A stretch of 64,000 bases of DNA from an uncultured Chloroflexia bacterium (GTDB lineage Bacteria > Chloroflexota > Limnocylindria > Limnocylindrales > CSP1-4): assembly GCA_963820735.1 (NCBI GenBank), contig CAWGBA010000004.1, positions 131,579-195,578 on the forward strand, given 5' to 3'. Positions 19,909 to 38,452 of the stretch are shown piece after piece. Made by a program: the position numbers and the translations under genes. A model generated the notes under the pieces. That model worked only from the letters and a program-made list of their open reading frames with translations. It was not told the DNA's origin and did not search any database. Positions within the stretch are counted from its first letter, which is position 1. The number at the start of each line of letters is the position of its first letter.

Positions 19909-19918
19909 GCGAAGCGAC

Positions 19919-20257
19919 ATGAACCAGGAACGTCGCCGTCCCATGAAGCGCCTCTCGGACGTCCTTCCGGGTGTGGCGTCCATGTTGGGCCTGGAGGGGC
20001 AGCTGGAGCGTGGCCGCGCCATCGCCAGCTGGGAGCGGCTCGTCGAGGAGTTGGTTCCGGCGGCGAGCGGTGCGACCCATCTGCTCGAGGTCCGTCCGCC
20101 CGCGCTCATCGTCACGGCCGATGACCCATTCGTCGCCCAGGAGCTGCGTCTGCGCTCCGACGAGCTGCTGCGGGCGTTCGCCATTGCCCCCGGGGGCGTC
20201 CGGCTGCTGGAGCTGCGGCCAGTTGTCCGGAGGCTCCCAGAGAGTCCTTCTCGGTAG
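19919..20257 (+). CDS. DUF721 domain protein (DciA-like, the usual recF-downstream gene)
   Basis: ATG 19919. LSDVLPGVASMLGLEG..RAIASWERLV...LEVRPPALIVTADDPFVAQELRLRSDELL matches the DUF721 pattern. Synteny follows recF. Confidence 0.7.
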   Translation: MNQERRRPMKRLSDVLPGVASMLGLEGQLERGRAIASWERLVEELVPAASGATHLLEVRPPALIVTADDPFVAQELRLRSDELLRAFAIAPGGVRLLELRPVVRRLPESPSR

Positions 20258-20269
20258 ACTACGGCCCCC

Positions 20270-22568
20270 ATGAGTTCCCGCCTACAGCTCAAGCACGGCC
20301 TGGTGGCCGAGCGGGACCGGCTCTCGACGTCCGCTGACAGCATGCTCGTCACCGAGCCGGCGACCGGCTCGAAGTCCCGCACCAAGGGCAATCTCTATGT
20401 CCTGGTCAGCTCCGCGGTCGTCGGCGGACGAGCGCGTGACGCGGCTGCGGCTGCGGCGCAGACGGTGCAGCGCGAGTACTACTACGACGAGTCGGCCGGC
20501 ATCCCCATCCTGCTGGAGAAGTGCTTCCGCAGCGCCAACCGCAAGCTGCGCGGCCGCGACGGCTCCGGGATCCAGCCGGGCTCGATCGGCGTCGCCGTCG
20601 CGGTGGTCCGTGGCAACGAGCTGTACGTCGCGACCGTCGGCGCCGTCTCGGCGTACCTGGTCCGATCCGCCCGCCTCCTGGTGCCGGAGCACAAGGCCGG
20701 CCCCGGCGTCCCGGCAAACGACGTCACGGTCGACGTCTGGCGCGGCGAGCTGGCGATCGGAGACTCGGTCGTGCTGGTCGCGCATCGCCTGGTCGAGGCG
20801 GTCGGGACCGAGGAGCTCAAGAACGCGGTCGTGACGCTCCATCCCCAGTCGGCCGTGGAGCACCTCCACCACCTGTTCGTGGCCTCGGGCGGGGAAGGCT
20901 CGGACGCAGTGCTCGTCGTGGAGGCAAGCGAGCTCATCGGCCGCAGCGACGACCACCGGCCGACCAGCGGGCCGCCAGGCGACGTCTACGGCGAGCTCTC
21001 GTTGGGCAGCCAGGCGGAGATCGCCAGCGACCCGTCACGGGCGAACGGCGCCACCATCGCCGGAGGCGGCAGGAGCATGGTCGGCGGCGTCACGGCGGGC
21101 CTCGGCGACATGGTTTCCCGGGTCACCGGTGGGTTCCCGCGCCGGGGGGCCTCCGCGCGCTCGATGGCGCCGGCGCTTTCCCGGCGGGAGTCCCAACGAC
21201 GCGGCGCGATCGCGATCCTCGCCTTCCTGCTCGTGATCCTGATCGGCGGTCTTGCCGTCGCGTTCTTCCCACGGGGCACCGAGCGACCGATCACTTCCCT
21301 GGGGAACGCCGCCGATAACTTCAACGACGCGCGCGACAAGATCGGCCAGGCGATGGCCGACAACGGCTCGATCGCCGTCGACTCGCAACAAGCGCTCGTG
21401 CTGCTGCGCGCTGCGTACGGAGAACTGGCGACCGCAGAGAAGGGCGGCGTCGATCCGAGCCTCATCGCGCCGCTGCGGGCCAGGGCGGTGCACGGTCTCG
21501 AGTTCATCTACTCGGCCAAGCACGCCAAGGCGAACCCGGTGCTCCAGTTCGACGAGCGGCGCCCAACCGACCGCGCTGAGCATCGGCCCGACGACCGACT
21601 CCAACGCGCTGTACTACATCGATTCCGCCGCTGGCAGCGTCTTCCGAGTGGACCCGACTTCCAAGCAGCCCAGGCCGGTCGAAGTGGTCAAGACGGGCAA
21701 CGAGGACCCAACCGGTGCACAGATCGCGCAGCCGCGCCTCCTGAGCGTCGGTGGGCTCGACCTGCTGATCGTCGATGAGCACGGCGACCTGTGGCGCTGG
21801 CGGCCCTCCGACAAGCAGGGCGACGGGACGCTCAAGAAGGTCCAGGTGCCGCCAGACCCGCTGTGGGGCACCGATGTCACCAACATCACGACCTATCCGC
21901 CGACCAACCAGACCTATGCGATCTACATCTCGATGCCGACACAGAACCAGATCCTCAAGTACCAGGCCTTCGGTGACGGGAGCGGGCTGCAGAACGGCCT
22001 GCACTGGATGACGACCGACCGCCAGGACGTGGGCAGCTTCATGGACATGACGATCGACGGAAACCTCTACGCGATCATGGCCGCCGCCGGTAGCTGCGAT
22101 ACCACCTGCGTGGGCGACCAGGTGCTCCAGTTCTTCAACGGCAACTACCAATCCGGCTGGAAGCTCGACACGCCACCGGATGACGCTGACCTGCGGCCGG
22201 GACACGACTACCGCCACATCGCGACGACCGGCGATCGGACCTCCGGCCGGATCTACCTCTACGACCAGAAGAACCAGCGCGTCGTCGCGTTTGACAAGGA
22301 CGGCAACTACGCCGAGCAGTGGTCCGCGGGAGTGGGCGGACCGCAGATGAGTGACGTCACGGGCATGGTTGTCGAGGACCACACCACCGATGGTCGAAAC
22401 GGGCAGGTGATCATCGACTGGATCAACTCGACGGGTCTGTACCGCAGCCCGCTCACCGACATCGGCGATTCCGTCCAGGCGAGTCCGGCCCCGAATGAGT
22501 CACCGAGCGCGAGCCCGGCCTCGTCGCCTACCAGGAAGCCGCACAAGTCTCCCAAGCCTTCGCCCTGA
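20270..22568 (+). CDS. Membrane protein: cytoplasmic PP2C/SpoIIE-like domain, one TM helix, extracytoplasmic beta-propeller-like domain (apparent frameshift near 21550-21560)
   Basis: ORF 20270..21778 holds a PP2C-like fold (GNLYVLVSS..GSIGVAVAVVRGNELYVATVG..GDSVVLVAH..DAVLVVEA) and the TM segment AIAILAFLLVILIGGLAVAFF. It continues in ORF 21252..22568 (ALSIGPTTDSNALYYIDSAAGSVFRVD...RIYLYDQKNQRVVAFDKDGNY). C-terminal SP-rich tail. Confidence 0.6.
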
Positions 22569-22619
22569 TGCAAGCGCTCTCACAGGGGCCGGACGGGAGG
22601 CGACGGTAAAATCGGAGCC

Positions 22620-23168
22620 ATGCTTCAGGGGATGAGCGAAATGGTCGTGGAGTCGGTCCGCGTCCACATGCTCTCCTCCCAGCACGTGGTGATCCTCAAG
22701 GAGTCGGAGCGCGAGCGCTACCTGCCCATCTGGATCGGCCCGTGGGAGGCCAACGCCATCGCCATGAAGCTGCAGGGTGTCTCGCCGGAACGCCCGCTGA
22801 CTCACGACCTCTTCTCGCGCACCTTGGCAGAACTGGGCGTGACGGTTCGGCGGATCGTCGTCTCCGACCTGGCCGACGAGACCTACCGCGCCAGGCTGGT
22901 GCTGGAGCTCGACGGCGAGGTGCGCGAGATCGATGCGCGGCCGAGTGACGCGATCGCCCTCGCGATTCGCGCCGGCGTGCCGATCTACGCCACCGAGCAG
23001 GTGCTGGATCGTGCGGGCGTCGTTCCCGAGACCGACGAGGACGAGAAGCTGTCGGTCTTCCGGGAGTTCGTGAACTCACTCGAGATGGACCTGGACCCAG
23101 GCGGCGGTGGAGGGCCGCTGGGCAGTGGGTCGGATCCCGAGGGTGGCCCGGAGACGCGGCCGGACTGA
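22620..23168 (+). CDS. Bifunctional nuclease family protein (BFN/DUF151)
   Basis: VVILKESERERYLPIWIGPWEANAIA..RPLTHDL...ARPSDAIALAIRAGVPIY is diagnostic of DUF151. Acidic/Gly-rich tail. Confidence 0.85.
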   Translation: MLQGMSEMVVESVRVHMLSSQHVVILKESERERYLPIWIGPWEANAIAMKLQGVSPERPLTHDLFSRTLAELGVTVRRIVVSDLADETYRARLVLELDGEVREIDARPSDAIALAIRAGVPIYATEQVLDRAGVVPETDEDEKLSVFREFVNSLEMDLDPGGGGGPLGSGSDPEGGPETRPD

Positions 23169-23181
23169 GAGTTTTCTCCGC

Positions 23182-24001
23182 TTATTCCGCCACCACCGGC
23201 TCTCCACGCCGAAGCGCGGCGGCGCGGTTTGCCCACAGCCGCAGCCGCAGCCGCCAGAAGTCACGCACGGCACGCAGAACCACCTTGGGATTGGCGCCCG
23301 AAGCGCTGCCGGCCACGCGCGGATAGTGCGGCACGCCGACCTCTGCGACGCGTCCGCCGCTCGCCTGGACCTTGATGAGCAGCTCTGCGGACAAGAACGC
23401 GCCACCTGATTCCAACCGCACCGGTCCGAGGGCTTCGCGGCGGAAGAGCTTGCACGCGCAGTCCACATCCCGGACGCGCAACCCGTAAAAGATCCGCAAC
23501 GCAAGCCGATAGAGCCGGGCGTAGACGAGGCGGATTGCCGGATCGGCGCGCTTGATGCGGTAGCCAACGACGACGTCCGGGCGTTTCTCGCCGCCTTGTG
23601 CGATCGGCTCATCGATGCGCGTCAGCAGCCGACCGAGATCGGCCAAGCGGAACTGGCGGTCGCCATCCGTGAACGCCACGAGCGGATAGACGCGACGAGC
23701 GAAAACCGGTCCGCAGCGCGGCACCATACCCCTGGTTCACCTCGTGGTGGACGGCACGCACCGTCTCGGGGTGCTTCGTCGCGAGCTCGTCTGCGAGCGC
23801 GCCGGTACCGTCGCGGCTGCCGTCATCGACGCAGATGATCTCGAAACGCTCGGCGAGGGTGGGCAGGACCTCGAGCGCCTCGGCGACCAGAGCCTCGATG
23901 TTCTCCGCCTCGTTGTGCGCCGGGAAGAAGTAGCTCAGCTCGGCCACGCGCGTCCCGGCCGCCGCCCCGTCGGGTGACGCGAGATCGTTCGTCAGGCTCA
24001 C
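23182..24001 (-). CDS. GT2 glycosyltransferase, polyprenol-phosphate sugar synthase-like (apparent frameshift near 23695-23705)
   Basis: N-terminal half in ORF 23609..24001 (LSYFFPAHNEAENI..IICVDDGSRDGT..NQGYGAALRTGF). C-terminal half in ORF 23182..23727 (VAFTDGDRQF...DVDCACKLFRREAL...). Confidence 0.8.
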
Positions 24002-25668
24002 GATTGCGGTCTCCCGCTGCTACCCGTGCTGCCGGATGTGTTCCCTGACAGTGGCAGCACGCGATACACCGTGCCCGACGGCTGTGACGGGATCCCGGCG
24101 ACTTTCTCGAGGTCATAGAGCGCCTGATAGGTCGGCAGGTCGTAGTCGACGCGGATCAGATAGACCGGCCGCTTCCCCAGGAATGCGTCGATGGCGTTCT
24201 GCGCCGATCCATATCCTTCGTCCAGCACGTTCCTATCGTCGATGATCTTCACGTCCGGGCGCTTCCCCTCGACGAACTGGCCGTACCACAACGGCGTGGA
24301 ATAGTTCCACCAGCTAACGATCACGGCATTCGGGTCCAGTGCCGCGAACGTCGCATCCATCCACGAGCGCGCGCCGGTCTCATCGGAGCGATCCTGCTGC
24401 GGGTACCGGTCGGGCACGGGCAGCAGCAAGGCCACGACCAGCACAGCCGCCACGAGCGTGCCACCAATCGCGATCATGTGCCGCGCACGTTCCGATCTCG
24501 AGAAGGTCTCGAGACCACGCCAGATGGCGTCCAGCGCCAGCGTCATCCAGACGATCGCGATCATCAGCGGCACGAGGTAGTAGCGCTCGATGGCGGCGTT
24601 CTCGTAGCCCAGGGCGAAGACGAAGGTCAGACCGAACCACAACGCCGCGAGGATCGCAAACGGCAGGTTTCGGAGGAATGACACGATCGCTCCGGCGATC
24701 GAAAGCACGGCGATGACGCCGATGTTGGCGACGAGCTCGTTCCAGATGAGGTTGAGGCCGCTCCGGAGCGACGGCATCGCGTGGAACGTGCCCTGGAACT
24801 GCTGGCCGAGCACGAGGTACTTGAACCGATCCCAGGTCACCGGGTCGGCGTAATCGAGGGGTGGGTTCATGGCGGCGCGCAGCGGGATGTAGGCGTACAC
24901 GGCCACGGTCGTGATGGCCAGCGCGACGATGCAGGCCAGCGTCACGCGCCAGCGCCGTCGGAGGAGCTCGGGCTCGACGATCAGGACGAACAGGCCGACG
25001 CCGGGCGCCAACAGCACGGTCAGGGCGTGGTTGCCCAGCGAAAGCCCGAACACGATCGAGGCGGCGACGAGCCACGCGGCGTTCCGCCGGTGCGTTCGCA
25101 CGCGCGACTGCCATGCGAGCAGCAGCACCAGCACCAGCGCCGAAAGGAAGATGTGCAGCGCGTGGGGATCGGCGGCGAGTCCCAGCGACCAGGCAAGCGG
25201 GCTGACAGCAAGCGCGATTCCAGCCAACAGGCCGAGCACCGCTCGGTGCGTCAACTGGACCACGACGACGGTCAGCAGAGCGCACGCGCCCGAGACGAGA
25301 ACCGCAGAGAGCAAGTCAGCACGGAATGCCGGGCTGCCGAACGGCTGGAAGACGATGGACGCGAGCCAGTCCAGCAGCGTGTAGGTGGGATAGCCGGTGG
25401 GATGCGCGATCCCGAGGACGGCACCGAGCGTCTGGAACTCGCCGGTGTCCCAGTAGGACACATCCGGAAGTAGGGTCCGAAGATCGAGCGCAAGCGAGAC
25501 AACGAACACGGCGGCAGCCGCCAGCACCGTGGTCCACGTGCCGAAGCGCGATCCGCCGGTGTCCTCGGCAACGATGGGAGCCGCAGGGACGCTGAAGGAC
25601 GTTCCCGCGGCTCGGGGCAGATCCGTGCTGGGCGTCGGGACGCCGGCCGGCGAGGCCTCGATCACCAT
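23998..25668 (-). CDS. DUF2723-family polytopic membrane protein (GT-C-like glycosyltransferase)
   Basis: YWDTGEFQTLGAVLGIAHPTGYPTY motif, many TM helices, large C-terminal soluble domain. Start taken at MVIEASPAG (25668), 1 nt after the upstream gene's stop. Confidence 0.7.
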   Translation of the reverse strand: MVIEASPAGVPTPSTDLPRAAGTSFSVPAAPIVAEDTGGSRFGTWTTVLAAAAVFVVSLALDLRTLLPDVSYWDTGEFQTLGAVLGIAHPTGYPTYTLLDWLASIVFQPFGSPAFRADLLSAVLVSGACALLTVVVVQLTHRAVLGLLAGIALAVSPLAWSLGLAADPHALHIFLSALVLVLLLAWQSRVRTHRRNAAWLVAASIVFGLSLGNHALTVLLAPGVGLFVLIVEPELLRRRWRVTLACIVALAITTVAVYAYIPLRAAMNPPLDYADPVTWDRFKYLVLGQQFQGTFHAMPSLRSGLNLIWNELVANIGVIAVLSIAGAIVSFLRNLPFAILAALWFGLTFVFALGYENAAIERYYLVPLMIAIVWMTLALDAIWRGLETFSRSERARHMIAIGGTLVAAVLVVALLLPVPDRYPQQDRSDETGARSWMDATFAALDPNAVIVSWWNYSTPLWYGQFVEGKRPDVKIIDDRNVLDEGYGSAQNAIDAFLGKRPVYLIRVDYDLPTYQALYDLEKVAGIPSQPSGTVYRVLPLSGNTSGSTGSSGRPQS

Positions 25669-27125
25669 CCCTTCACGACGCCCCAATAGACACCCCATGC
25701 GTTGACCAGCACCGACGCGACGATCAGGCCGACCGTGATGGCATTCGAGCGCCACCGCTCCACGGCAAGCGCGACGAGGATGACGGCAAACGGCGCGAAA
25801 TCATTGCTGAAGCGGTAGCCGAACTGCACCCACCCCTGGCTGAAGTGCATGAGGTTGGCGAGCGCGATCGCGATCGTCGCGAGCGCTGCCCCAGCGACGA
25901 CTCGACGCCGCCAGGTGGCCGCCGCCAGGGGGATCGCCAGGAGGTAGGCAGGGCTGGTCAGGAAAATGCTCATGCCCACCGGATCGGGCTGCAGCACCGC
26001 GCAGTTCTCGTCAAAGATCAGGCCCAATCCGGTCGGCGCGTTGTCGCCCGAGCAGTCGGACGAGGTGATCGGGGTCTTCGGGGGCCAAAGGAGCAGGATC
26101 GGCGCGTTGACCACGATGTAGCGCGGGTCCTCGATTGCCCAGTTTGGGTGGTAGAACGCCGGCACCGGGTGCGTCTCGGTCGTGCGCAGGTAGTCGTACG
26201 CCGGGTGGAACAGGTGCCCGGTCGTGGCCAGGTTGTAGCCCAGCAACAGCGCGACCGGGATGATCGCGCCGACCCCCGCGAAGGCGGCCCGCCGGAGCCA
26301 CGTGCCACCGCCTCCGACGAACGCGAAGAACGGCGCCCCGAAGATCGTCGTCAGCCGCGCGATCGCGGCGGTGCCGTAGAGCAGCCCGGCCACGAACTGC
26401 CGCCACAGGGCTCCCGTGCGTGCCCGGGTGGCGTTCGCCACCGCTGCCAGCTGTTCCCGCCGCTCGGCGTCGAGCGCTGCCGTGATACCCAGGAAGAGAA
26501 AAGTTGAGGCGACGACGTGTGCCAGGAACCAGGTGCTGCCCAGCATGGCCGCGTACCAGGCCACCGTCCCGAAGCCGTAGAACAGCGTGCCGAGAAGGGC
26601 CGCGTCCCGACGCAACGTGACGCGCTGCAGCATCCGCCAGCAGAGCGATACGTTGATTGCCCCGATCACCGCGCAGATCAGCGCGGCATTCGTGCTCAGC
26701 CCCCACAGTGCGACGAAGGGCAGCAGGATGACCGCGGGGAGCGGCGGGAAGGGAAGCAGCGCCTGGCCTTCGGGGATGACCGGGTTGGTGACCCCGGCCG
26801 GTCCGAGCGGCGGTCCGGGGAGGACGTCCTGGAAGTAGCTGTTCGAGACCGGTGAGTCGACTGGGTAGGGAATCGTCACGTGGCCGTGCAGGTATGCGTC
26901 TGCCTGCCAGACGAAGTGGTTGTAGAAATTCTGGCGATCAGGATTGGAAAGGATGTAGACGGCCAGCGCGATGAGGAACAACCCGATCCCGACCAGCGCC
27001 GGATCGACGCGCGCTAGCGCGCGCTCGATCCTTCCATCGGCAAAGGCAACGCCTTCTGCCACCGGCCTTCCGCGCCCTTCGCGGAGCGCAGGGTCACCCG
27101 GGGCCGTTGCTATACTGCCCGACAC
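25662..27125 (-). CDS. Polytopic membrane protein, ArnT/PMT_2-like GT-C glycosyltransferase candidate
   Basis: 487-aa ORF with about 11 TM helices and an early extracytoplasmic loop. Sits between GT-C genes in a glycosylation cluster. Family assignment is tentative. Confidence 0.5.
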   Translation of the reverse strand: MSGSIATAPGDPALREGRGRPVAEGVAFADGRIERALARVDPALVGIGLFLIALAVYILSNPDRQNFYNHFVWQADAYLHGHVTIPYPVDSPVSNSYFQDVLPGPPLGPAGVTNPVIPEGQALLPFPPLPAVILLPFVALWGLSTNAALICAVIGAINVSLCWRMLQRVTLRRDAALLGTLFYGFGTVAWYAAMLGSTWFLAHVVASTFLFLGITAALDAERREQLAAVANATRARTGALWRQFVAGLLYGTAAIARLTTIFGAPFFAFVGGGGTWLRRAAFAGVGAIIPVALLLGYNLATTGHLFHPAYDYLRTTETHPVPAFYHPNWAIEDPRYIVVNAPILLLWPPKTPITSSDCSGDNAPTGLGLIFDENCAVLQPDPVGMSIFLTSPAYLLAIPLAAATWRRRVVAGAALATIAIALANLMHFSQGWVQFGYRFSNDFAPFAVILVALAVERWRSNAITVGLIVASVLVNAWGVYWGVVKGW

Positions 27126-27155
27126 CCTGATCCTTTCCCTGGAGGCCGGTCGGCG

Positions 27156-30100
27156 TTGACTTCGACCCCGGCGCGCGGGGCCGAATCGGTTCGTGGGGCG
27201 CCAGTGCGATCCGTTCGCGCCCGCCCCTCCGTGTCCCCGGCACTGATCATCCTACTCGTCGGCGGGCTGGCGCTCCGTTTCGCAATCGCGTACCTGTTCT
27301 TCCCCCAGTCCGGATTCTCGACGGACCTTTCGAGCTACGCCGCGTGGGCAAACACGCTGGCGCAGTACGGACCGGCTGGCTTCTACGCCAACGCCGGATT
27401 TGCCGACTACCCGCCGGGCTATCTCCTGCTGCTGTGGCCCATCGGCCTGATCGCACAGTCCGGCGGCCTCGGGATGGCCACCGAGGATCTGATCAAGATC
27501 CCGCCGATCCTGATCGACGTCGCGGTGGGGTTGGTGCTCTACCTGCTGGTCAAGGGCTGGGCTCGGCCGCGTGGCTGGCGCTGGGCCGAACGAGCCGCGC
27601 TCGCAGCCGCCGCGATCTACCTCTTCAACCCGGTCACCTGGTACGACTCGGCGCTCTGGGGCCAGACCGACGCTGCGGGAGCACTGGTCATCCTGCTCGG
27701 TGTCGCGGCGCTGATTCGGGGCAACACCGAGGGCGCCGCCGCGCTCGCGGTCGTGGCGGCGATGGTGAAGCCGCAGTTCGGCGTGGTGTTGATCCCACTG
27801 GTCGGCGTCGTCCTCCTGAAGCGCCACCTCTTTGACCCGGGCTCCGGCCCGATCCACCGTCCGCTGGTCGGCGGTCGCATCGGTGAATGGCTCGTGTCCA
27901 ACCAGGGCCCGGCTCGCATCGGGACGGCGTTCCTGGTCGCATGGTTCGTGTTCTTCGCGATGGCGATCCCGTTCGGCATGGGGCCGTACGAGTACCTGAC
28001 GTTCGTTTCCAAGACGGCCGGCGGTTACCCGTACCTAACGGTCAACGGCTACAACCTGTGGGCGCTGATCGGTTCCGAGGGCAATGGCTCGCTCGCATCC
28101 GACGGCCTCTGGTCCAAGGACACGATCCCGCTCCTCGGTCCGCTCCCAGGAGTGGTAATCGGCGGCGTGCTGCTGCTTGCAGGCTTCGTCGTCGGGCTGT
28201 GGGCCGCGTTCCGGCGTGACAACCGCCCCACGATCCTGATCGCGGCCGTGGTTCTATCGGCGGCGTTCTTCGTCCTGCCGACCCGCGTCCACGAGCGTTA
28301 CCTCTTCCCGGTGTTTGCGCTGCTCCCGATCCTGGCCGTGTGGAGCGGACGCTGGCGCTGGGCCACGCTGGCGTTCGCGATCGGGTCGTTCATCAACCTC
28401 CACGCGATCCTGACCAACGCCAATCCGCAGTACGGGACGGACAACGTCGCCAACCTGCCGTTCGGCGACCTCTTCCGCACCTTCCCGTTCGTTGGCCTGG
28501 CCGTCGTGCTCCAGACAGGCGCGTTCCTGTTTGCCGTGTGGCAACTGCGCGGCGCACGAGGCGGCCTCGAGCAGCTGGTCGAGACGCCCGCGCAGCGCCA
28601 CGACGGCCTCGCGACCGTTCCTGCCATCGCGCCACCGATTCCAGGACCGGGCTGGCCGGCCCCCGCTGGCAAGGAGTGGGGCGCACCGGCGTTCGCCGCG
28701 GCGCTTCCCCGGCCGGAGGGCGATTCGCTCTACGCCGCTGAAGCCGACGCCGGCGCTGAAGCTGCCGAGCTCAGCGCCACAGAGGAAGCTGCAGCCCTCA
28801 CCGGCCAAGAAGATGACTCGGGAACCGAGTGGGCCGGTTTGGGCACGTGGATCGACGGCAAGCTCGGCACGCTGCGTCCCGTTCGACGCGATCGCAGTGC
28901 CGAGTTGACGGTGGAGCCCGCAGGCCGGTTCGACCGCGTCGACGCATTGATCCTCGTCCTGCTCACGGTCGGCTCGCTGGCCCTCCGCGCATGGCACCTC
29001 GATCAGCCAAAGGACATGTATTTCGACGAGGTCTACCACGCCCGGACGGCGACGGAGTTCCTCCAGGACTGGCGCTACGGGATCGTCCATTCGATCTACG
29101 AATACACGCACCCGCACATCGCCAAGTACGCCATGGCGCTCGGCATCGAGGCGTTCGGGGACAACAAGGTCGTCAGCACCACGCAGCTGGACGGTCCGGT
29201 GTCCGACGCCGCCATCGAAACGCGCTGGAGTCCGGCTGGGCTCCCTGCGGAGCGCGATGGCGACCGCTTGTACGTCGTCAACGGCACGGACCTGCGCGTC
29301 TACGACCTGGCCACACGACAGCTGATCACGACGATCCCGCTGGACAAGCCGGCCACGGCCGTTGCCGTCAACGACGATGGGCACCAGCTTTACATCGCTT
29401 CCGACGACGGAACGATCAGCCAGCTCGACACGACCGACCTCGATGCACTGCGCACCGACCCTTCGGTGAGCGTCGACGCTCCGACGCCGATCCTGACGCT
29501 CACCGGCACGACCGGAGACGTCGTGCAGCTGGTCGTCGTCGACGATCAGCTCGTAGCTCGCACGAGCGACGGCTGGCTGGCAGCGATCGACCCGGCGAAC
29601 GCCGTCCAGACAGGCACCCTGCACGTGCCCGGCGCGGTGAAGGCCGTGCGGGTGCCCGCCACCGACCAGGTCGTGGTCGACCAGACCAAGGTCACCAACC
29701 TCGAGGAAGAAGCCGGCCTGATCGCCACGGCGCTCGCTGACACGCCCTCGAGGATCCGGCCACTGCTCCAGGGCACGAGCACTCGCGTCGGACTCTCCGG
29801 CTACCTCTCGGATACGGATCGGACGGCCATCCAGAAGGACATGGATGCCGGCAAGCTCCCGGGCGTCACGATCGAGTCGGGACCTGTTGTGGCGGTGAGC
29901 GACCCACAGGGCGTTTCGTTCCTGGACGCCGCCAGCCTCGGGTCGCTGAGCCGGATGACGATCGAAGGTGCCAGCGGCATGGCGCTGGTGGACCGCGGCT
30001 TCGACAACCCGGTCCTCTACCTGGCGGCCGACGGCACGGGCGGACCCCAGCTCATCGAAATCAACATCAACGACACCGGCCCGGCGACAGGGCGGACCCT

Positions 30101-32508
30101 GCAGATGCCGGGCCTGGTCCACGACGTCGTGTGGAACGAGCCCGCCAACCTCGTCCACGTCATCGGCCAGACCTCCGATGGAAAGCCGACGATCTACGTG
30201 GTCGAACCGCACGCCGAATCGGTCTACGCCGATGCTCAGCTGCCTTTCACACCACAGATCACCCTGGCGGACACGCAGCGCGACCGCCCGGAGTCGGATC
30301 GCAGCGACCTGCTGGCGCTTTCTCCGGACGGATCGCTGGCCGTCGTGGACATCGGCCAGAACGCCTTCGCGTGGCGCTTCCCGGGCGTGATCATGGGCAC
30401 CGTCATGCTCGTCTGCATCTACCTGCTGGCGCGCTTCCTCTTCCGCCGGCGCAGCGTGGCGCTCTTCGCCGCGGCGCTCGGGTTGGTCGGCGGCATGTTC
30501 TTCGCCAACGCCCGGATCGCCATGAACGACACGTACGTGGCGGGCTTCATGATGGCCGCGCTGACGGTGTTCGTGCCGCTCTACATGGGCCTCTGGCGGC
30601 GCCGCTGGCAGGTCATCCTGGGCCTGTTCGCGGTGGGCATCCTGCTCGGGCTTGCGCTCGCGTCGAAGTGGGTCGGCGCCTATGCGATCGGCGGCATCGC
30701 GTTGCTCGTCCTGCTGCGCTCGGCGCTCGGCCGGATCATCGCTCTGATGGCGATGATCACGCTCACCGCCGTGCTCGGAGCGCTGGCCGTTCGGGCACCG
30801 GATGTGCCCTCGCCGCACGTCGACGTGTTCTTCCTGGGCTTGATGCTCGTACTGACGGTCGCCCTCGCCGTCGCGATGGTTCGGCGTCCGGTGCGCATGA
30901 CGATGGCCGAGCTGCGCTTCGCCGTCTTTGCGCCGGCCGTGGCCGGGATCGTGCTGATCGCAGGGTCGCTCGCATTCGCTTCGCACCTGCCCGACAGCGG
31001 CTTGTTCTCGGCCCGCGCCGTCTCGCTGGCAGGAGCGGCGGCCTTGCTGCTGAGCGCCGGCTCCTATGCGCTGGCCTGGCTCGCGTCGCGTCGCGGTCGC
31101 GGGCCGCTTGCGCGACGCCGCGTCGTGCCGCCCGACGAGCCGATCCCGTCACCGGCGCCGACCGGCTGGCTGCTGCCCGGCCACGCGGGCGGGATCCCCT
31201 GGCTGTACGCCTTCGCGTGCCTGTCGGTCGTGCCGATCGCCGTCTACATCATCAGTTACATCCCCTGGTTCAACCTGGGCAACCAACTGATCGATGGGAT
31301 TCCCGGCCGGCCACACCGGCCAGACGCTGTGGCAGTTGACGCTCTCGATGTACGACTACCACAACAACCTGCGAGCGGGCCACCCGGCGTCTTCGCCCTG
31401 GTGGGCCTGGCTCCTGGATCTCAAACCCGTCTGGTTCTACCAGGAGGGCTTCGCCAACAACACCACGGGGGTCATCTACGACGCGGAGAACCTCGTCATC
31501 GTGTGGCTGGGCATTCCTGCGATGATCTTCACGGCCTGGGCGGCGTGGCGGCGGCGCAGCCTCTCGCTCACGGTCATCGTGGTGATGTTCCTGGCCATGT
31601 GGTTGCCGTGGTCGCGCATCGATCGGGCCACCTTCCAGTACCACGTCTTTACCAGCCTGCCGTTCGTGGTGCTGGCGCTGGCCTACTTCCTGGCCGAGCT
31701 ATGGCACGGGCCATCGCCCGGCGTCTGGCTGTTTGCTCGCTTCTCGGCGGCTGCGGCGATCCTCGGGCCGCCCCTGCTCTGGCTGGGGCGAGCTCCGCTG
31801 TGCATCATCGCCGGCTCTGCCGCGGCCCACACCGCCGAGAATTCCGGGCAGGGGGTCGCCTGCGGCTCGATCACGCGCTCGACCGACGTGAGCCAGGCTG
31901 CGATGGTCTCGGTGGTCATCCTCCTGATCGGCGCGCTGGCGCTCGGCTGGCAGCTCTGGCTTCTCTACCGGGCGGGCGGCCGCACGGAGCCACTGCGAGT
32001 GGCCGGCGTGCGCATCCCGGTTGAGGCTGCTCCGTATCTGACGCTGATCGCGATCATCGCGATGGTGGTGGTCGTGCCGCGGATCTTCAGCGGCGAGCCG
32101 ATGTTCACGCTCACGGTGAGTGCCGACGAACTTGCCTTGATCGGCCTCGTCGTCCTCGCGATACCTGCGTACCTCGTCCTTCGCGCTCGTGACAGCCGGC
32201 GGTTCGCGCTCGGCATCATGACCGCGGCCGTGCTCTGGTTCGTTGCCTGGTACCCGAACCTGTCAGGACTGCCGATGCCCAACTCGATCGCCAACATCTA
32301 CCAGGGCCTGCTGCCCACCTGGAACTACGACTTCTGGTTCGCGGTCAACAAGGACCCTGCCGCCAAGGGCCCATTGGGCGCCCTGGTGCTCGGCATCCTG
32401 ATCGTCACCCTGATCGTCGTGGCCCTCGCCATGATCGTGGCCTACTGGCGGCGGCCCGAACGCCAGGTCGCCCAAGCCGAGGATGAGGTCTCCGCGCCAG
32501 CGTCCTGA
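27156..32508 (+). CDS. Giant (~1780 aa) double GT-C protein: N-terminal DUF2029/PIG-V-like module plus PMT (GT39)-type module carrying a ~400-aa beta-propeller-like insert (apparent frameshift near 31290-31310)
   Basis: ORF 27156..32024 joins ORF 31294..32508. N-terminal module: DLSSYAAWANTLAQYG..ADYPPGYLLLLWP. PMT module: DE motif YFDEVYHARTA (~29019-29042), then ARIAMNDTY, then the PMT C-terminus GQTLWQLTLSMYDYHNNLRAGHPASSPWWAWLLDLKPVWFY. Confidence 0.7.
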
Positions 32509-32536
32509 CCCCAGTTGTGGATCGCAAGATCCCGCC

Positions 32537-32624
32537 CGCCTGGTGGTTCGGCCCATACCAGGCTTGGGGGTGGGTCTCACCGCGCTGGTCGTTTGGCCCC
32601 GTACCAAGCTCGGGTTGGTCTCAC
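32537..32624. repeat. Tandem 2 x 44-nt repeat at the head of dispersed-repeat copy 1
   Basis: CGCCTGGTGGTTCGGCCCATACCAGGCTTGGGGGTGGGTCTCAC followed directly by CGCGCTGGTCGTTTGGCCCCGTACCAAGCTCGGGTTGGTCTCAC. Confidence 0.8.
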
Positions 32625-32981
32625 CCCCGGATGGTCGCCCTAGGCCGGGATCCTATGTGGTCATTCGTGCACGGGGAGCACGGTAGAACACCGTCTGTCA
32701 CGTCGAGAACGCTCGTCACGATCTGTAGGCCGCTAGTCCACGCTCAGCGATGGTCGATTCGGGTCGTCGCCGACGGTCACCGAGCCTCCGATGGCATGCT
32801 CCACGGGCCACGAGATTGCCCTACGTGCTGCCCACGCGCGTCTGACCACGAGTCATGCCGAGTAGGGCAATGACCGTGCTCGGCAGGCGCAGCTGACAGC
32901 CAGCCCCGCTTCGGAGCGAGCGCTGGCCGACGACGGAGACCGGCCTGCGACCGTACACGGGTTGCCGACCGGACCCGACCA
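32570..32981. repeat. Dispersed noncoding direct repeat, copy 1 (~412 nt)
   Basis: Aligns end to end with 39578..39994 in the same orientation. The first ~115 nt are identical. Lies 31 nt downstream of the PimA-like stop. Confidence 0.9.
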
Positions 32982-33011
32982 CACTGACCGGACCTGACCA
33001 GCGGCAAAGCG

Positions 33012-34223
33012 CTAGACCGGCGAACGGACCTCGTCGGACTCGATCGGGATCGTGTGAGGGTGGGGTGGCTGCGGGATCGGCGCGTGGAAGCCCGACGGCA
33101 GCGCTGCCTGTGCCGCGAGTCGACGGATCACAAAGCCGTAGTAGTCGTCGACCTTGGCGGTGATGCTCTCCCAGCTGAACTGCCGCGCTCGCTCCTTGCC
33201 GGACTCGCCGAAGCGGAGGCGCAACGCCGGGTCACGCAGCAACGTTCCCAGTGCCTTGGCCAGCGCGTCGACGTCCTTGGGCGGAACGAGGAGCGCCTGC
33301 TCGCCGCGTCGAACGACGCCCTTGTATCCGTGAATATCGCTGCACACGATGGCCGTGCCCGCTGCCATCGCCTCGAGCAGCACGATGCCGAACGACTCCT
33401 GGCCGGTCGCGGGCGATGAGTAGATGTCAGCGGTCACGAACGCGCGGTTCTTGTCCAGCTCACTGACGCGACCGAGCAGCTCGACGCCCGTGAGCCGTCG
33501 CGTGGCGATGTAGCGGCGGACCTCCCGCTCCTGCGGGCCGGTTCCGACCACGAGCAGCCGCGCATCGATGCCGTCTCGGCGCACCTGGCGGTAGGCCTTG
33601 AGCAGGTAGGTGAGGCCTTTGCGCGGCTCGAAGCGGCCGACATACAAGATGTTCGGCGTGCCGTCGCGCCAGCGCGCAAACGGCACGACGTTGTCGAAGG
33701 CCCGAAGATCGACGCCGTTGGGGATCACCTTGTAGTCGCCCGGGAAGTACCTCTCGATGAAGTGACGTGCCGCGGCGCTGACGGCGATCCGTCCGTGCAG
33801 CCGGCGCGCAAAGCGTTGGAGCATCCGCTTGCCGAACTCGTACGACGGGCTCCAGCCGGAGTAGGCGTGGAAGGTGGCCACGTTGACGCTCGTCGAGTGG
33901 CGGAGCAGCTGCAGCGACAGGAACGGCACGAACGGCTCGTGAAAGTGCAGCAGGTCGAACTGCTCGTCGACCAGCACGCGTTCGATCAGCTCGCCGTATC
34001 GGTGCGACAGCGTGAGCGTTCCCACCGAGCCGTTGGTCGGCACGCTGATGCCGTATCCCAACCGGATGATGTCGCCCTCACTGGAGCGCTGCGGCCCGTG
34101 GGTGCTGCTGATGATGCGGACATCGTGCCCGCGGGCGACCAGGTTCTCGTACAGGCGCTGGACATGCGCGTTCACGCCGCCCGGAAGCGGGTAGATGTAC
34201 GGCGTGACGAGACCGATCTTCAT
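33012..34223 (-). CDS. GT4 glycosyltransferase, PimA-like phosphatidylinositol mannosyltransferase candidate
   Basis: MKIGLVTPYIYPLPGGVNAHV..., FHEPF, GRFEPRKG, and the E-x7-E region ESFGIVLLEAMAAG. ATGA overlap with the upstream gene. Context includes ino1 and a CDP-alcohol phosphatidyltransferase. Confidence 0.75.
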   Translation of the reverse strand: MKIGLVTPYIYPLPGGVNAHVQRLYENLVARGHDVRIISSTHGPQRSSEGDIIRLGYGISVPTNGSVGTLTLSHRYGELIERVLVDEQFDLLHFHEPFVPFLSLQLLRHSTSVNVATFHAYSGWSPSYEFGKRMLQRFARRLHGRIAVSAAARHFIERYFPGDYKVIPNGVDLRAFDNVVPFARWRDGTPNILYVGRFEPRKGLTYLLKAYRQVRRDGIDARLLVVGTGPQEREVRRYIATRRLTGVELLGRVSELDKNRAFVTADIYSSPATGQESFGIVLLEAMAAGTAIVCSDIHGYKGVVRRGEQALLVPPKDVDALAKALGTLLRDPALRLRFGESGKERARQFSWESITAKVDDYYGFVIRRLAAQAALPSGFHAPIPQPPHPHTIPIESDEVRSPV

Positions 34224-36112
34224 GCGTCGATAGTGCCCGGCTTGGACGAAAGGGGCCGACGCCGGCTGCCGGGATAACCGAGGTCCCGGCCGGTGCCGCG
34301 TCGCAGGAGCGTTCCACCGACATCGTCGCGCAGGGCCCGCGCGTTCTTGCGCGTCTGGTGCCCGAACAGGCGGAACTGCTCGCTCCACGGGTAGGCGCTG
34401 CCTTCGAACGTGGTCTGCCGCTCGGCAATCGCGCGGCGCAAGTCCTCGGTGGTGTGACCCGAGAAGCGCGTGACGACCTGGCCGACGTTGCTGGCGCGGT
34501 GCGCATCACTGCCACCGACCGCGGCGACCCCGCATTCGATGACGAACTCCGGGACGCGTTTCGCCCAGCGCATGGCCGCGGTGGTCGGGTTGAACGCCTC
34601 GATCCCGTCGGGATGAACGCGCGGGTCATCCGCCGCCAGCAGGCGCCTGATCGTCCCTGCCGACGCGCACAGTGGATAGGGCACGAGCGGGTGCGCCACG
34701 ATCGCGATGCCGCCCTGTTCATGGACGCGACGGACCGAGTCGCGCATCGATCCCCACGGGCCGATCCGCTCCTGCATGAAAAGCGCGACCAGGTGGCCGT
34801 TACGAGTCGTGATCTCCTCGCCGACGATCACCTCGATCGGCAGCCCCTTGGCGATCGCCATCGCGCGAGCGGCAACGGCCCCGTCGACACGCTCATGATC
34901 GGTGATGGCGAGCAGTGACAACCCGCGCGCGACCGCCGCGTCGAGGATCGCCTCGACGCCGTCGATGCCGTCGGAGGCCATCGAATGGACGTGCAGGTCC
35001 GCGGATCCCCAGTCATCCATGGGGTTGGGGGTGGCGGCTGCTGCCGGATGCGCGCCTGTCGGCGTCTCTTCCACGTCGTTCATGCGTCGGTGAGCCTTTG
35101 GCGTTGTCGCCTCCGGCCAGATGGGGAAGAACAGCGACCACCATTGGTCCGGTGCCCGACTCACGGTCTCCTCGAGGATGCGCACCTCGTCGGCGATCGC
35201 GGCGGCCACTTTTTCTCGTCGCGATCCGACCTGCGGGACCTGGAGTTGATCGAGGCGGGCCGACCAGCGATCCCAGCCGATGCGAGTCATCGTCACGATG
35301 TAGGTCTCGGCGCCGGTTTCGGCCGCCAGGATCGCGGGCCCGCGGGGAAGGCGTGCCGGCGCACCGAAGAGTGTCACGGCCGCACCTGCACCGCCGATGA
35401 CCCGATCGGCCACCAGCGCGACGCCCTGGCCTGCTGCCAGTCGGGCGGTGAGGTGCTCGGCGACGTCCTCGACTGGGAGAAGTCGCACGCCCAGCTGCTC
35501 GCGGGTGCGTTCGAAGTAGGCGCGAAGAGCCGGGTTGGAAAGTCGCTCCATGGGTCCGGCGATGTCAAGGCTTGCCCTTCGGGCGGCGTAGGCAGCAGCC
35601 AGCTCGACGGAGCCGTAGTGGAATCCGACGTACATCACGCCACGACCGCCAGGAGGCGGGCGGAGGGCTCGCTCGGCGACGTCGGGATTCGCCAGCTCGA
35701 CGCGATCGAGCAGGCCGCCGCGGCGATCAGCTGCCGGTGCGATGGCGCTCTCGGCGTACGTCCGAACCCAGTGCTCGAACGCACTGCGGACGAGGGCGTC
35801 GAGCGCGCGGTCGTCAGTTGCCGCCGTTCGCGCACGTTCGGGGCCGGTTCCGCGACTGGCCAGCTCGACGCAGACTCGGCGCAGGTTGCCGCGCACCAAC
35901 CGGCGCCGTGCAGGCATGGCCGAGTAGCAGATCCGGCCGATCAGGGCGGCCGTTCGCAGCACGAACGATTCGGGAAGTGCCTGGAGCAGGCGAACGCCGC
36001 CAAGGAGCAAGGCGAGCATGACGCGGTCGACCAGCCGCAGCGGCTGCTCATCAGCGTTGCCGGCTGTGGCCGCCGCCGTCATCGAGTGCCGCCCCGGTCG
36101 TTCACCCGGCAT
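34220..36112 (-). CDS. Fusion protein: HtrB/LpxL-family lipid acyltransferase (N-terminal) plus PHP-domain phosphoesterase (C-terminal)
   Basis: The N-terminal ~340 aa resemble the neighbouring acyltransferase (VGFHYGSVELAA...VADRV..GAPARLPRGPA). The C-terminus has DLHVHSMASDG...AITDHE...IVAHP...GGSDAH, the PHP metal-binding histidine pattern. Confidence 0.75.
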   Translation of the reverse strand: MPGERPGRHSMTAAATAGNADEQPLRLVDRVMLALLLGGVRLLQALPESFVLRTAALIGRICYSAMPARRRLVRGNLRRVCVELASRGTGPERARTAATDDRALDALVRSAFEHWVRTYAESAIAPAADRRGGLLDRVELANPDVAERALRPPPGGRGVMYVGFHYGSVELAAAYAARRASLDIAGPMERLSNPALRAYFERTREQLGVRLLPVEDVAEHLTARLAAGQGVALVADRVIGGAGAAVTLFGAPARLPRGPAILAAETGAETYIVTMTRIGWDRWSARLDQLQVPQVGSRREKVAAAIADEVRILEETVSRAPDQWWSLFFPIWPEATTPKAHRRMNDVEETPTGAHPAAAATPNPMDDWGSADLHVHSMASDGIDGVEAILDAAVARGLSLLAITDHERVDGAVAARAMAIAKGLPIEVIVGEEITTRNGHLVALFMQERIGPWGSMRDSVRRVHEQGGIAIVAHPLVPYPLCASAGTIRRLLAADDPRVHPDGIEAFNPTTAAMRWAKRVPEFVIECGVAAVGGSDAHRASNVGQVVTRFSGHTTEDLRRAIAERQTTFEGSAYPWSEQFRLFGHQTRKNARALRDDVGGTLLRRGTGRDLGYPGSRRRPLSSKPGTIDA

Positions 36113-37028
36113 CCATTTCGGCTGCGCGCCGCTCGAGCTCGGCCGCTTCCTCGTCGCTCGTCGGCCACATGGGTTTGAAGGTGAACCACTGCTCGGGCTG
36201 CACGCGAACCATCTGCTCGAGCGCGTCGGCGATCTGCTGCGTCGCGCGCCGGATCTCCGCCTGCGAGCCCTCGGCGACCGTGATCGGATCGAAGTGCGAG
36301 CCGAGGTACGTGCCGTCGGGTCGGCGACGGTTCACCACCGGAACAATCGATGCACCTGTCTTCGCGGCGAGCGTCGCCGGTCCGGCCGGGAGCGTGGTCC
36401 ACTCGCCGAACAGCTTCACGGGCACGTCCGTCGGTCGATAGCCCCAGTCCACCACGAGCCCGAGCACGGCCGGCTGCCGCAGTGCGCGGAAGACGTCGCG
36501 CAGGTTCCTCCAGGGAATGATCTTCACGCCGCGGCGCGCCCGCATTTCCGTGAGCCGTGCGAACAATTCGGGATACTCCGTGTCGTCCGCGAGGCCGTAC
36601 GTCGGGATGCCCCGGAGCGCGCCGGCCGCGGCGAACAGCTCGATGCTGCCGATGTGCCCGGACACGATGATGAGGCCCTTGTCGCGAGCCTCGTGCTCCT
36701 TCCAGAGCTCAACCAACGAGTCGATGCCGTGATCCGGCGCGCCTTGGACGAGCGTCAGCGGCTCGTCGACCGGACGGCTTGGCAGGCGCATGAGTTCCAG
36801 CGCGAACTCGGCGTAGCTCGCGTAGATCTGTCGTGCGAGACGGGCGACTTCCGGGTCGTCAACGCTCGTGCCGAGCACGCGCGCGGCATTCGCCTGGACG
36901 ATGCGGCGTTTCTGCGGCCAGCCGTAGTAGCCCGCCGACGAAGAGCTGGCGAGCGACCGGCGAGCTGACGCGCGGGCTGATGCGGCCGAGCGCGGTCTCG
37001 GCGGCTCGGTAACCGCCGATGACGCCAC
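36102..37028 (-). CDS. HtrB/LpxL-family lipid acyltransferase (PIM acyltransferase PatA-like)
   Basis: SGHIGSIELFA (HX4-type acyltransferase motif region), LVVDWG..VKLFGEWTTLPAGPATLAAKTGA, QWFTFKPMWP. Confidence 0.75.
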   Translation of the reverse strand: MASSAVTEPPRPRSAASARASARRSLASSSSAGYYGWPQKRRIVQANAARVLGTSVDDPEVARLARQIYASYAEFALELMRLPSRPVDEPLTLVQGAPDHGIDSLVELWKEHEARDKGLIIVSGHIGSIELFAAAGALRGIPTYGLADDTEYPELFARLTEMRARRGVKIIPWRNLRDVFRALRQPAVLGLVVDWGYRPTDVPVKLFGEWTTLPAGPATLAAKTGASIVPVVNRRRPDGTYLGSHFDPITVAEGSQAEIRRATQQIADALEQMVRVQPEQWFTFKPMWPTSDEEAAELERRAAEMDAG

Positions 37029-37102
37029 GCTCGCGGGTGCGACGGGCGAGCCGGCGCAAGCCGGCCGATTCGATCCGTCGATGGGGGGAGTAGCGGACGC
37101 CG

Positions 37103-38452
37103 CTATCCGGCGCCCGTGTCTCGTCCGTCATGAACCAGGGAGGAGTCGCGGGCTAATGCGCCGCGGCAGCCTCGGCCTTGCGTGACGACGAGTGCCCGTT
37201 GCCGGCTGTCGCCGACTCGGATGCGGGACGCGCCTCGAGCTCGACCGGGGACGATGCGCCGGGACTTGGCCAAACGCCGCGTCTTCTTGGCACGTGGAGC
37301 CTCGGTGCCGACGAGCGTTTCGTTGTCCTCGCCACGGATGAACGCCTCGACGCGGTTGAACGCGATGTCATCGTGGATCTGGATCGGCGGGCTCTTCATG
37401 AAGTAGCTCGACGGGGCAACGAGTGTGCCCTTGAGGCCGCGGTCCAGGCCCAGCTTGAGGCAGCGGATCGCGTCGGTGATGACGCCTGCCGAGTTGGGCG
37501 AGTCCCAGACCTCGAGCTTCATCTCGACGTTGAGCGGCACGTCACCGTATGTCGTGCCCTCCATGCGGATGTAGCACCACTTGCGGTCGCGCAGCCACGG
37601 CACGTGGTCAGACGGGCCGACGTGGATGTCGTCCGGGTCGAGCTCGTAGTCGAGCATCGAGGTGACGGCGTTGGTCTTGCTGATCTTCTTGGACTCGAGG
37701 CGCTCGCGCTCGAGCATGTTCAGGAAGTCCGTATTGCCACCGAAGTTGAGCTGGTACGTGCGATCGAGGCGAACGCCACGATCCATGAAGAGGCGCGTCA
37801 GCACGCGATGACTGATCGTGGCGCCGACCTGGCTCTTGATGTCATCGCCGATGATCGGCAGGCCTTCCTCGGCGAAGCGGCGCTGCCAGTACGGTTCGCG
37901 GCCGATGAACACCGGGATGGCGTTGATGAAGCCGACGCCCGCCTTGAGCGCCTGCTCCACGTACCACTTGGTGGCCTCCTCGGAGCCGACCGGCAGGTAC
38001 GAGACAACGACGTCGACTTCGCGCTCCTTGAGGATGCCAACGACATCTGCCGTAGGGCCGGGCGCCTTCTCGATCACCTGCGACAGGTACTTGCCCAAAC
38101 CATCGTGGGTCATGCCGCGCTCGACCTTCACGCCGGTGTGCGGGACCTGCTGGAAGACATAGGTGTTGTTGGGCTTGACGTAGATGGCCTCGGAGAGGTC
38201 CTTGCCGACCTTGTTCTTGTCGATGTCGAAGGCGGCAACAAACTCGATGTCACGGATGTGATAGCCGCCCAGGTTGACGTGCATGAGGCCCGGGACGAAG
38301 TCGTCGTCCTTGGCGTCCTCGTAGTAGTAGCGGCCCTGAACCAGGCTGCTGGCGCAGTTGCCCACGCCAACGATCGCCACGCGGATCTTGCCGTCCTTGC
38401 GGCGGGGATGGCGGCCGTTGCCGTTCTGGCTGCCGCTGTCGTTCTTTGCCAT
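37103..38452 (-). CDS. ino1: myo-Inositol-1-phosphate (inositol-3-phosphate) synthase
   Basis: [52 protein letters not shown] and WDSPNSAGV are all conserved MIPS blocks. There is an unusual ~70-aa basic C-terminal extension. Confidence 0.9.

Follow-up and report, generated by a model that had tools for sequence, protein, structure and literature searches.

We analysed a fusion gene on the forward strand of a 64,000-nucleotide stretch of DNA (the window; contig CAWGBA010000004.1) from an uncultured bacterium of the class Limnocylindria, phylum Chloroflexota. Its product is one polytopic membrane protein in which an N-terminal glycosyltransferase module of the GT-C fold is joined by a linker to a module of the protein-O-mannosyltransferase (PMT) type, and in which about 400 amino acids (aa), modelled as a beta-propeller of probably seven blades, interrupt the first loop of the PMT module. 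We favour, with fair confidence, the view that this protein is a single-chain extracytoplasmic glycosylation machine using a polyprenyl-phosphate sugar donor. Protein O-mannosylation is a process conserved between bacteria and humans, and bacterial PMTs lack the MIR domain of eukaryotic PMTs. All the individual parts of the protein are of known kinds. What is new is the propeller spliced into PMT loop 1, the fusion in cis to an ALG6-like module that seems to be active, and the conservation of this arrangement throughout the class. We found no description of such an architecture for Chloroflexota or Limnocylindria in the literature. The gene and its parts, in window coordinates, are the following.

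27156..32508 (+): whole fusion gene, about 1783 aa, in two frames in the assembly, both of which are covered by the alignment to P0004, an intact orthologue of 1777 aa with 62% identity
27156..28565 (+): N-terminal GT-C module (aa 1-470), ALG6/PIG-U/ALG3-like, from AlphaFold2, Foldseek, a Pfam tally and column conservation
28566..28925 (+): Ala/Glu/Pro-rich linker with Arg-rich ends (aa 471-590), presumably cytoplasmic, from low predicted local distance difference test (pLDDT) values and the Arg-rich flanks
28926..29159 (+): first transmembrane helix (TM1) of the PMT module, DE motif (D624-E625, 29025-29030) and two juxtamembrane helices (aa 591-668)
29160..30359 (+): beta-propeller insert (aa 669-1068), probably of 7 blades, from AlphaFold2 and Foldseek, with boundaries from a short paralogue
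29682..29861 (+): helical sub-insert (aa 843-902) that separates blades C and D of the propeller, from DSSP helices
30360..31295 (+): PMT transmembrane core 3' of the insert (aa 1069-1380), from Pfam PMT at 1068-1187, PMT_2 and a profile match to yeast Pmt1 (6p25_A)
31293..31299 (+): position of the +1 switch, with one base too many in 'gatGGGa', from the open reading frames (ORFs) and the alignment to P0004
31297..32508 (+): C-terminal part in the second frame, with PMT_4TMC (PF16192), more TM helices, a conserved Cys pair and a YPN...LPTWN motif

The two GT-C modules and the inserted domain

A preliminary description of the window had proposed a PMT-type module carrying the catalytic DE motif, and this is borne out by profile searches. 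The Pfam family PMT (PF02366) matches the window protein with E = 6.8e-14 (52.4 bits, cut-off 22.7) in two stretches that flank the insert, and it matches all 28 intact homologues (best E = 4.3e-19). PMT_2 is also matched in the first ORF. PMT_4TMC, which falls in the second frame, is borderline in the window copy (32.5 bits for a cut-off of 32.4) and was found in 28/28 homologues, with a best E of 2e-15. The motif itself, YFDEVYHARTA, spans aa 622-632 (nt 29019-29051), and beyond the insert FAWRFPGV starts at aa 1070 (nt 30363). The D and E of the motif are at least 90% conserved among 114 aligned sequences and invariant in the 28-sequence alignment. A search of the Protein Data Bank (PDB) with a profile of the whole family returned, for the PMT core, only Pmt1, plus weak propeller matches; there was no match for the N-terminal module.

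We folded the intact pieces aa 1-520 and aa 575-1379 separately. The AlphaFold2 model of the second piece (47 aligned sequences) has a pLDDT of 87.9 and a predicted TM-score (pTM) of 0.81, so that the placement of its domains relative to each other is confident as well. It runs from TM1 (aa 594-611) through the DE motif and the juxtamembrane helices (aa 623-641 and 655-667) into an all-beta domain, and then into TM helices from aa 1069; in the numbering of the fragment the first three helices are at 20-37, 49-67 and 81-93. The most conserved segments of the module lie here: mean column identity is 0.89 for the DE motif with the first helix and 0.83 for the second helix.

An insert of about 400 aa at 29160-30360 had been claimed to be propeller-like, and aa 669-1068 (nt 29160-30359) were indeed modelled with confidence as a domain whose top Foldseek matches are all propellers. 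The top 50 matches are beta-propellers without exception, at E-values near 1e-10. The best target-normalised TM-scores belong to seven-bladed structures (5yzv, 0.77; ATG16L1, 0.72; G-beta, 0.65-0.71), the eight-bladed BamB reaches 0.50-0.57, and the YVTN propeller 1l0q is also matched. The roughly 30 strands (pLDDT about 90), as read from the DSSP string, group into seven four-stranded blades, of which the last is built from the first two and the last two strands, as expected of a domain spliced into a loop. Hence, the model indicates that the insert is a beta-propeller, probably of 7 blades.

The boundaries of this domain come from a canonical PMT of 503 aa (L104 1000..2511, with the motif VFDEVFYA). 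This protein aligns to fragment residues 13-94 (E = 8e-9) and runs straight on into the part that aligns to residues 488-602. Since it is contiguous across the insertion site, aa 669-1068 are, on this alignment, a domain cleanly inserted after the second juxtamembrane helix and ahead of TM2. Conservation is uneven among the blades: those on the entry and exit side (F, G and A) reach 0.60-0.69, against 0.47-0.54 for the distal ones, a pattern that fits a fixed docking on the catalytic loop with a more variable outer surface. The sub-insert at aa 843-902 is 60 aa long, with DSSP helices at fragment positions 275-285, 290-297 and 312-323. It is apparently missing from a 1394-aa version of the protein in 1.1-Mb genomes of the same order (L009), where the insert, judged by eye from the translation, measures about 330 aa.

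When the insert was the query of an exhaustive HMMER search, full-length matches came only from this fusion family; the insert itself scores above no Pfam or NCBIfam cut-off. Its residues 10-105 match 8-23 repeats of giant proteins that Pfam assigns to seven-bladed propellers of the YncE-like/lactonase type, some of which carry PKD and PGF-CTERM. The YVTN-type pattern proposed for the insert is thus supported for its first blades. Some shorter matches to the fusion, of 1130-1440 aa, might be PMT-plus-propeller proteins without the N-terminal module; as such they are unconfirmed and may be truncated gene calls. We set aside a similarity of the region around 29560-29800 (aa ~801-883) to the pedestal of class B penicillin-binding proteins (7rcz and 4ovd, E = 1e-3 to 2e-3), which is probably a chance likeness between beta-hairpins.

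The N-terminal module is also a GT-C enzyme by fold. The AlphaFold2 model of aa 1-520 (46 aligned sequences; pLDDT 83.5, pTM 0.85) is all-helical and polytopic, and a Foldseek search of the PDB returned, at E < 1e-3, GT-C enzymes only, with probability 1.0. The matches are ALG6 (6snh), PIG-U (7w72), ALG3 (9s6r), ArnT, the oligosaccharyltransferases OST/AglB/PglB, Emb and PIG-M, with 5f15 also among the hits; TM-scores are 0.54-0.58 for 6snh and, target-normalised, 0.66 for 9s6r. An entry for PimE was absent among the top 50. The preliminary description had assigned these ~470 aa to a DUF2029/PIG-V type. The GT-C part of that assignment stands, but the affinity to GT87/DUF2029 does not: Alg6_Alg8 is matched by 10 of the 28 intact homologues and PIG-U by 3, against 2 for GT87 (E <= 0.01), and the window copy scores 18-19.6 bits on GT87 (PF09594), below the gathering score of 25. 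Genuine GT87 genes elsewhere in the source genome score 40-80 bits. Fold, family tally and sub-cut-off score together make this a GT-C module of ALG6-like affinity and not a member of GT87. With ALG6/ALG8 (GT57), PIG-U, ALG3 and PimE (GT87) it shares the GT-C fold and an invariant Asp past TM1, but its sequence similarity to them is only marginal.

That residue, D57, lies nine positions past TM1, where the first juxtamembrane helix begins. In PimE the same place is taken by the catalytic base, D58, the counterpart of the catalytic Asp in ALG6, ArnT and PglB (PMC12041525). Together with D57, the residues D84, D121, D164, D172, K205 and H379-E380-R381 are invariant in all the relatives that cover them (43-46 of 46), although these are only 46-68% identical. 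The position of D57 and the invariance of these acidic and basic residues suggest that the module is catalytically competent and probably an active second transferase. Stand-alone paralogues of the module (460-495 aa) occur, sometimes in tandem, away from any PMT gene. At one locus (L094 8001-14831), which is unrelated in context, three of them, of about 470-480 aa, share 7 kb and have an acyltransferase_3 gene and a PMT_2-like gene as neighbours.

These data bear on an alternative in which the architecture is the same and the N-terminal module is a non-catalytic scaffold or an acceptor-recruiting partner, in the manner of yeast Pmt2 in the Pmt1-Pmt2 model or of mycobacterial Rv0051; the PMT module alone would then transfer sugar. 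Such a partner has a precedent in mycobacteria, where ML2687c/Rv0051 is reported to lack catalytic residues and yet to contribute to the pmt phenotype (bioRxiv 10.64898/2026.07.15.738315), and both the covalent fusion and its class-wide conservation would fit an obligate structural partnership. Yet, a scaffold would hardly account for the invariance just described, nor for stand-alone paralogues in tandem arrays away from PMT genes, which are what one expects of active enzymes. We consider this alternative unlikely.

The linker between the two modules was described beforehand as Ala/Glu-rich, which it is; it is modelled as disordered (pLDDT < 50 for aa 482-520) and cannot be aligned between relatives. 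Its flanks, WQLRGARGG and RPVRRDRS, are rich in Arg, and for this reason the positive-inside rule would place aa 471-590 in the cytoplasm.

The frame break in the assembly

The gene is read in two frames. The first ORF (27156..32024, TTG start) encodes 1622 aa and overlaps the second (31294..32508, 404 aa), to which it stands in a +1 relation. Reading through the switch gives a product of 1783 aa, in agreement with the ~1780 aa and the single frame change near 31300 reported before. Because frame 2 has a TGA at 31288-90, the switch is confined to 31293-31299, within 'gatGGGattcc', and we place the change in the GGG run, at 31296-31299. In the protein alignment, the junction GNQLIDG/FPAGHTGQTLW of the window copy corresponds to GNQWFAGNPAGHTG in P0004, the closest intact relative, or GNQWFAGNPAGHTGTTF in a longer context, and the junction matches. 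The part read in the second frame is 68% identical to P0004 residues 1374-1776.

We translated the genes called in the syntenic 25 kb of the closest relative (L011) and aligned them to the window by tblastn. Compared with these intact genes, at least 7 frame changes lie within ~24 kb (window 17600-37200):

~18490: dnaN
~18980 and ~19390: recF
~21590: gene for a 761-aa protein
~23690: GT2 gene, an extra T in a TTTT run
~31297: fusion gene, in the GGG run
~36931: acyltransferase gene

The window gene might instead be truly broken, as a pseudogene or a source of two products, or be decoded by a programmed +1 frameshift. What speaks for this is that the assembled sequence offers no in-frame path through the change. 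But the extra base sits in a homopolymer, the neighbouring breaks include the GT2 gene and genes of the essential type such as dnaN and recF, and there is no interruption in some 900 relatives (1700-1830 aa), all with the C-terminal part in frame. Moreover, the source genome (4.2 Mb in 14 contigs) is scored 64% complete, against at least 90% for smaller relatives; a large contiguous genome with low completeness is typical of indel-rich long-read assemblies. In a sister metagenome-assembled genome (MAG) with long contigs dnaN and recF are split too. Given the density of frame changes and the many intact relatives, the break is almost certainly an artefact of the assembly and not biology, and we give very little credence to a true break or a programmed frameshift.

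The same indel rate casts suspicion on another gene. A 630-aa 'PHP phosphoesterase + acyltransferase fusion' at 34220-36112 (-) corresponds to two adjacent genes in relatives, separate in L011 (281 + 346 aa) and in L013 (275 + 334 aa), and this fusion may be artefactual. Any 'split' or 'fused' gene of the source genome should thus be compared with relatives before it is interpreted.

Proposed mechanism and known systems

If the protein is the single-chain glycosylation machine that we favour, its GT39/PMT-type C-terminal module, with the DE motif in the first outward loop, would use a polyprenyl-phosphate donor to place a hexose, probably mannose, on Ser/Thr residues of exported proteins. The neighbouring GT2 gene would probably make the lipid-linked donor. 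Spliced as it is between the second juxtamembrane helix and TM2, the propeller would lie beside the DE loop on the outer face, where it would most likely select or gate the acceptor polypeptide. This role would be that of the MIR domain in eukaryotic PMTs, and that proposed for Rv3212 of mycobacteria; by this analogy, the earlier idea that the insert is a substrate-recognition domain is plausible. The ALG6-like module would be the second GT-C partner, comparable to yeast Pmt2 and mycobacterial Rv0051. It would be tethered by the cytoplasmic linker and would probably serve, for example, to extend the first sugar. The data show the domain anatomy, the folds, the conserved residues, the class-wide distribution and the synteny; which sugar is donated, what accepts it and what the propeller does are inferred.

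The closest known system is a complex proposed for mycobacteria, composed of the GT39 enzyme Pmt (Rv1002c/ML0192c), Rv0051/ML2687c, Rv3212/ML0810c and two copies of Rv1209/ML1065. It is based on AlphaFold3 models, phenotype correlations and a Pmt-FLAG pulldown in M. smegmatis, in which these proteins are reported to co-purify with Pmt. In it, ML2687c/Rv0051 is described as a GT87-like GT-C protein without catalytic residues, and ML0810c/Rv3212 as a periplasmic propeller of eight blades that is predicted to sit right over the Pmt active site, proposed as a gatekeeper and likened to the MIR domains of Pmt1-Pmt2. The same work reports translational GT39-GT87 fusions in Paenibacillus (UniProt V9WAU2) (bioRxiv 10.64898/2026.07.15.738315). 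Going by this description, the mycobacterial complex and the Limnocylindria protein have in common a GT39 module with the DE motif, a second GT-C module and a propeller on the outer face at the catalytic centre, and the Paenibacillus fusions share the covalent joining of GT39 to a second GT-C module.

The mycobacterial parts are separate proteins, whereas in Limnocylindria they form one polypeptide with the propeller in PMT loop 1. A bridging subunit like Rv1209 would be unnecessary in Limnocylindria, where a linker of ~120 aa joins the two GT-C modules. The propeller looks seven-bladed and of the YVTN/YncE type rather than eight-bladed. Finally, the Limnocylindria GT-C partner keeps invariant residues of the catalytic type, which Rv0051 is said to lack; because of this difference, the N-terminal module is probably an active transferase. 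Hence, one may say by analogy that the Limnocylindria protein works like the mycobacterial complex, and not that it is a member of it.

The eukaryotic enzymes PMT1-PMT2 and PMT4 (GT39; PDB 6P25, 9E61, 9I5K) share with the fusion the GT-C fold, the DE motif in loop 1 and the PMT_4TMC region, as well as a unit of two GT-C modules (a dimer) and an extra domain of the outer face that caps the active site. Yet, their extra domain is a beta-trefoil MIR in loop 5, not a propeller in loop 1, and their partner is a second GT39 and not an ALG6-like module fused in cis. Canonical bacterial PMTs of ~500 aa, such as the 503-aa paralogue, have the same TM1, FDEV(F/Y) motif, loop-1 helices and TM core, but neither the N-terminal GT-C module nor the propeller, since loop 1 leads straight into TM2, and a shorter C-terminus.

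Several observations weigh against the mechanism proposed above. The actinobacterial Pmt equivalog NF058602 gives 15.1 and 37.8 bits with the two window pieces and 18.6 bits with P0004, far below its cut-off of 800; the PMT module is thus, as judged from its sequence, a divergent GT39-type enzyme and not an actinobacterial Pmt orthologue. The predicted position of the propeller on the outer face beside the active site is deduced from where the insert enters the sequence, from the pTM and from the pattern of conservation rather than from distances. The likeness to Rv0051 and Rv3212, a comparison by description and not by sequence or fold, may be convergent, as the number of blades differs (seven against eight). 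A phosphatidylinositol (PI) and PI-mannoside (PIM)-type lipid operon as a conserved neighbour would also fit a glycolipid acceptor. Lastly, among the best 80 loci listed, the carriers are MAGs, all from uncultured organisms.

A more specific version of the proposal can be put forward only tentatively. In it both GT-C modules would be catalytic, the PMT module, gated by the propeller built into it, adding the first hexose to selected exported proteins and the ALG6-like module extending it within the same assembly, and the protein would be the natural single-chain equivalent of the bacterial protein-O-mannosylation holo-complex. If this were true, bacterial PMTs would have an ancient and general need for a capping propeller and a GT-C partner, which one phylum satisfies by fusion and another with separate subunits. 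The fused form offers independent evolutionary support, of the Rosetta-stone type, for the partnership of Pmt, GT-C protein and propeller proposed in mycobacteria. The fusion enzyme suggests that the partner GT-C is still catalytic in the Limnocylindria lineage. It also provides a single-chain target for structure determination and reconstitution, which avoids a fragile multi-subunit assembly.

Distribution and gene neighbourhood

The long fused form was found in 30/30 relatives from the genus and the order. A sample taken across the phylum included 20 members of the class, and every one of them had it (by family, 7/7, 1/1 and 12/12). It was found in 0 of ~180 other Chloroflexota genomes, where only PMT_2-like proteins of 550-750 aa match the TM core. 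Among species-representative genomes, at least 598 stretches matched the search pattern, at least 576 of them encoding a relative, and nearly all of the best 80 loci are labelled Candidatus Limnocylindria, Limnocylindrales or Chloroflexota. Databases already contain hundreds of members, under generic names such as 'phospholipid carrier-dependent glycosyltransferase' and 'Gpi18-like mannosyltransferase'. The fusion protein is under class-wide purifying selection and makes a clean lineage marker for Limnocylindria. When orthologues with and without the insert or the fusion were sought, as had been recommended, the fusion proved class-wide and the short-loop 503-aa PMT (VFDEVFYA) was also found in the class: it stands besides the giant fusion in genomes of another order. 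We did not find this short canonical form in the source genome, which is incomplete.

Gene order around the fusion is kept down to 46% identity in the three relatives examined (62%, 47% and 46%). It runs from dnaA/dnaN-recF-DciA through the gene of a ~760-aa protein with a BFN nuclease, a glycosyltransferase operon on the minus strand and the fusion gene to a PI/PIM-type operon. The fusion belongs to a conserved block of envelope-glycoconjugate genes beside the replication origin. The neighbours with a bearing on glycosylation are these:

23182..24019 (-): GT2 gene of the polyprenyl-phosphate-sugar synthase type, frame-broken, likely donor supplier; the intact orthologue has 286 aa
23998-25755 (-): TMEM260-like GT-C gene, divergent from the fusion
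25662-27125 (-): GT-C-type gene for a LA_3751/LA_3752-like putative membrane glycosyltransferase of 487 aa, no Pfam match, divergent from the fusion
PI/PIM-type operon, convergent with the fusion: PimA-like GT4, PHP, two acyltransferases, Ino1, CDP-alcohol phosphatidyltransferase, ArsR

The intact GT2 orthologue matches the models for dolichyl-phosphate-hexose transferase, PpgS and ArnC. The LA_3751/LA_3752-like gene adjoins the fusion in 3/3 relatives, and the TMEM260-like gene is present in L011 and L012 and was not called in L013. About 30 bp separate the first gene of the divergent operon from the start of the fusion gene.

The convergent operon raises the alternative that the acceptor is a lipid-anchored glycan. 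The enzyme would then build or extend a PI-anchored mannan, resembling lipomannan, and the propeller would hold the growing glycan. The adjacency of the PimA-like GT4, the acyltransferases, Ino1, the phosphatidyltransferase and ArsR is kept to 46% identity, and the synthesis of PIM and lipomannan in mycobacteria uses GT-C enzymes dependent on polyprenyl-phosphate mannose, such as PimE (PMC12041525). However, the fusion gene and the PI operon run towards each other and are not co-transcribed, and synteny is weak evidence of shared function here because the region adjoins dnaA-dnaN-recF, where gene order is generally stable. The hallmarks of GT39, i.e. the DE motif and PMT_4TMC, are also present, and to our knowledge the characterised GT39 enzymes that have both all glycosylate proteins. 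A lipid-anchored acceptor is, on this evidence, decidedly improbable, and a protein acceptor is retained in the mechanism that we favour.

Elsewhere in the source genome we observed at least 5 genuine GT87 genes of the PimE/Rv2181 type (C14:112013-112702, C4:73012-73665, C4:57944-58594, C3:132558-133109 and C4:56968-57588). With the PI/PIM-type operon, they suggest a rich glycolipid pathway dependent on polyprenyl-phosphate mannose in this Chloroflexota lineage.

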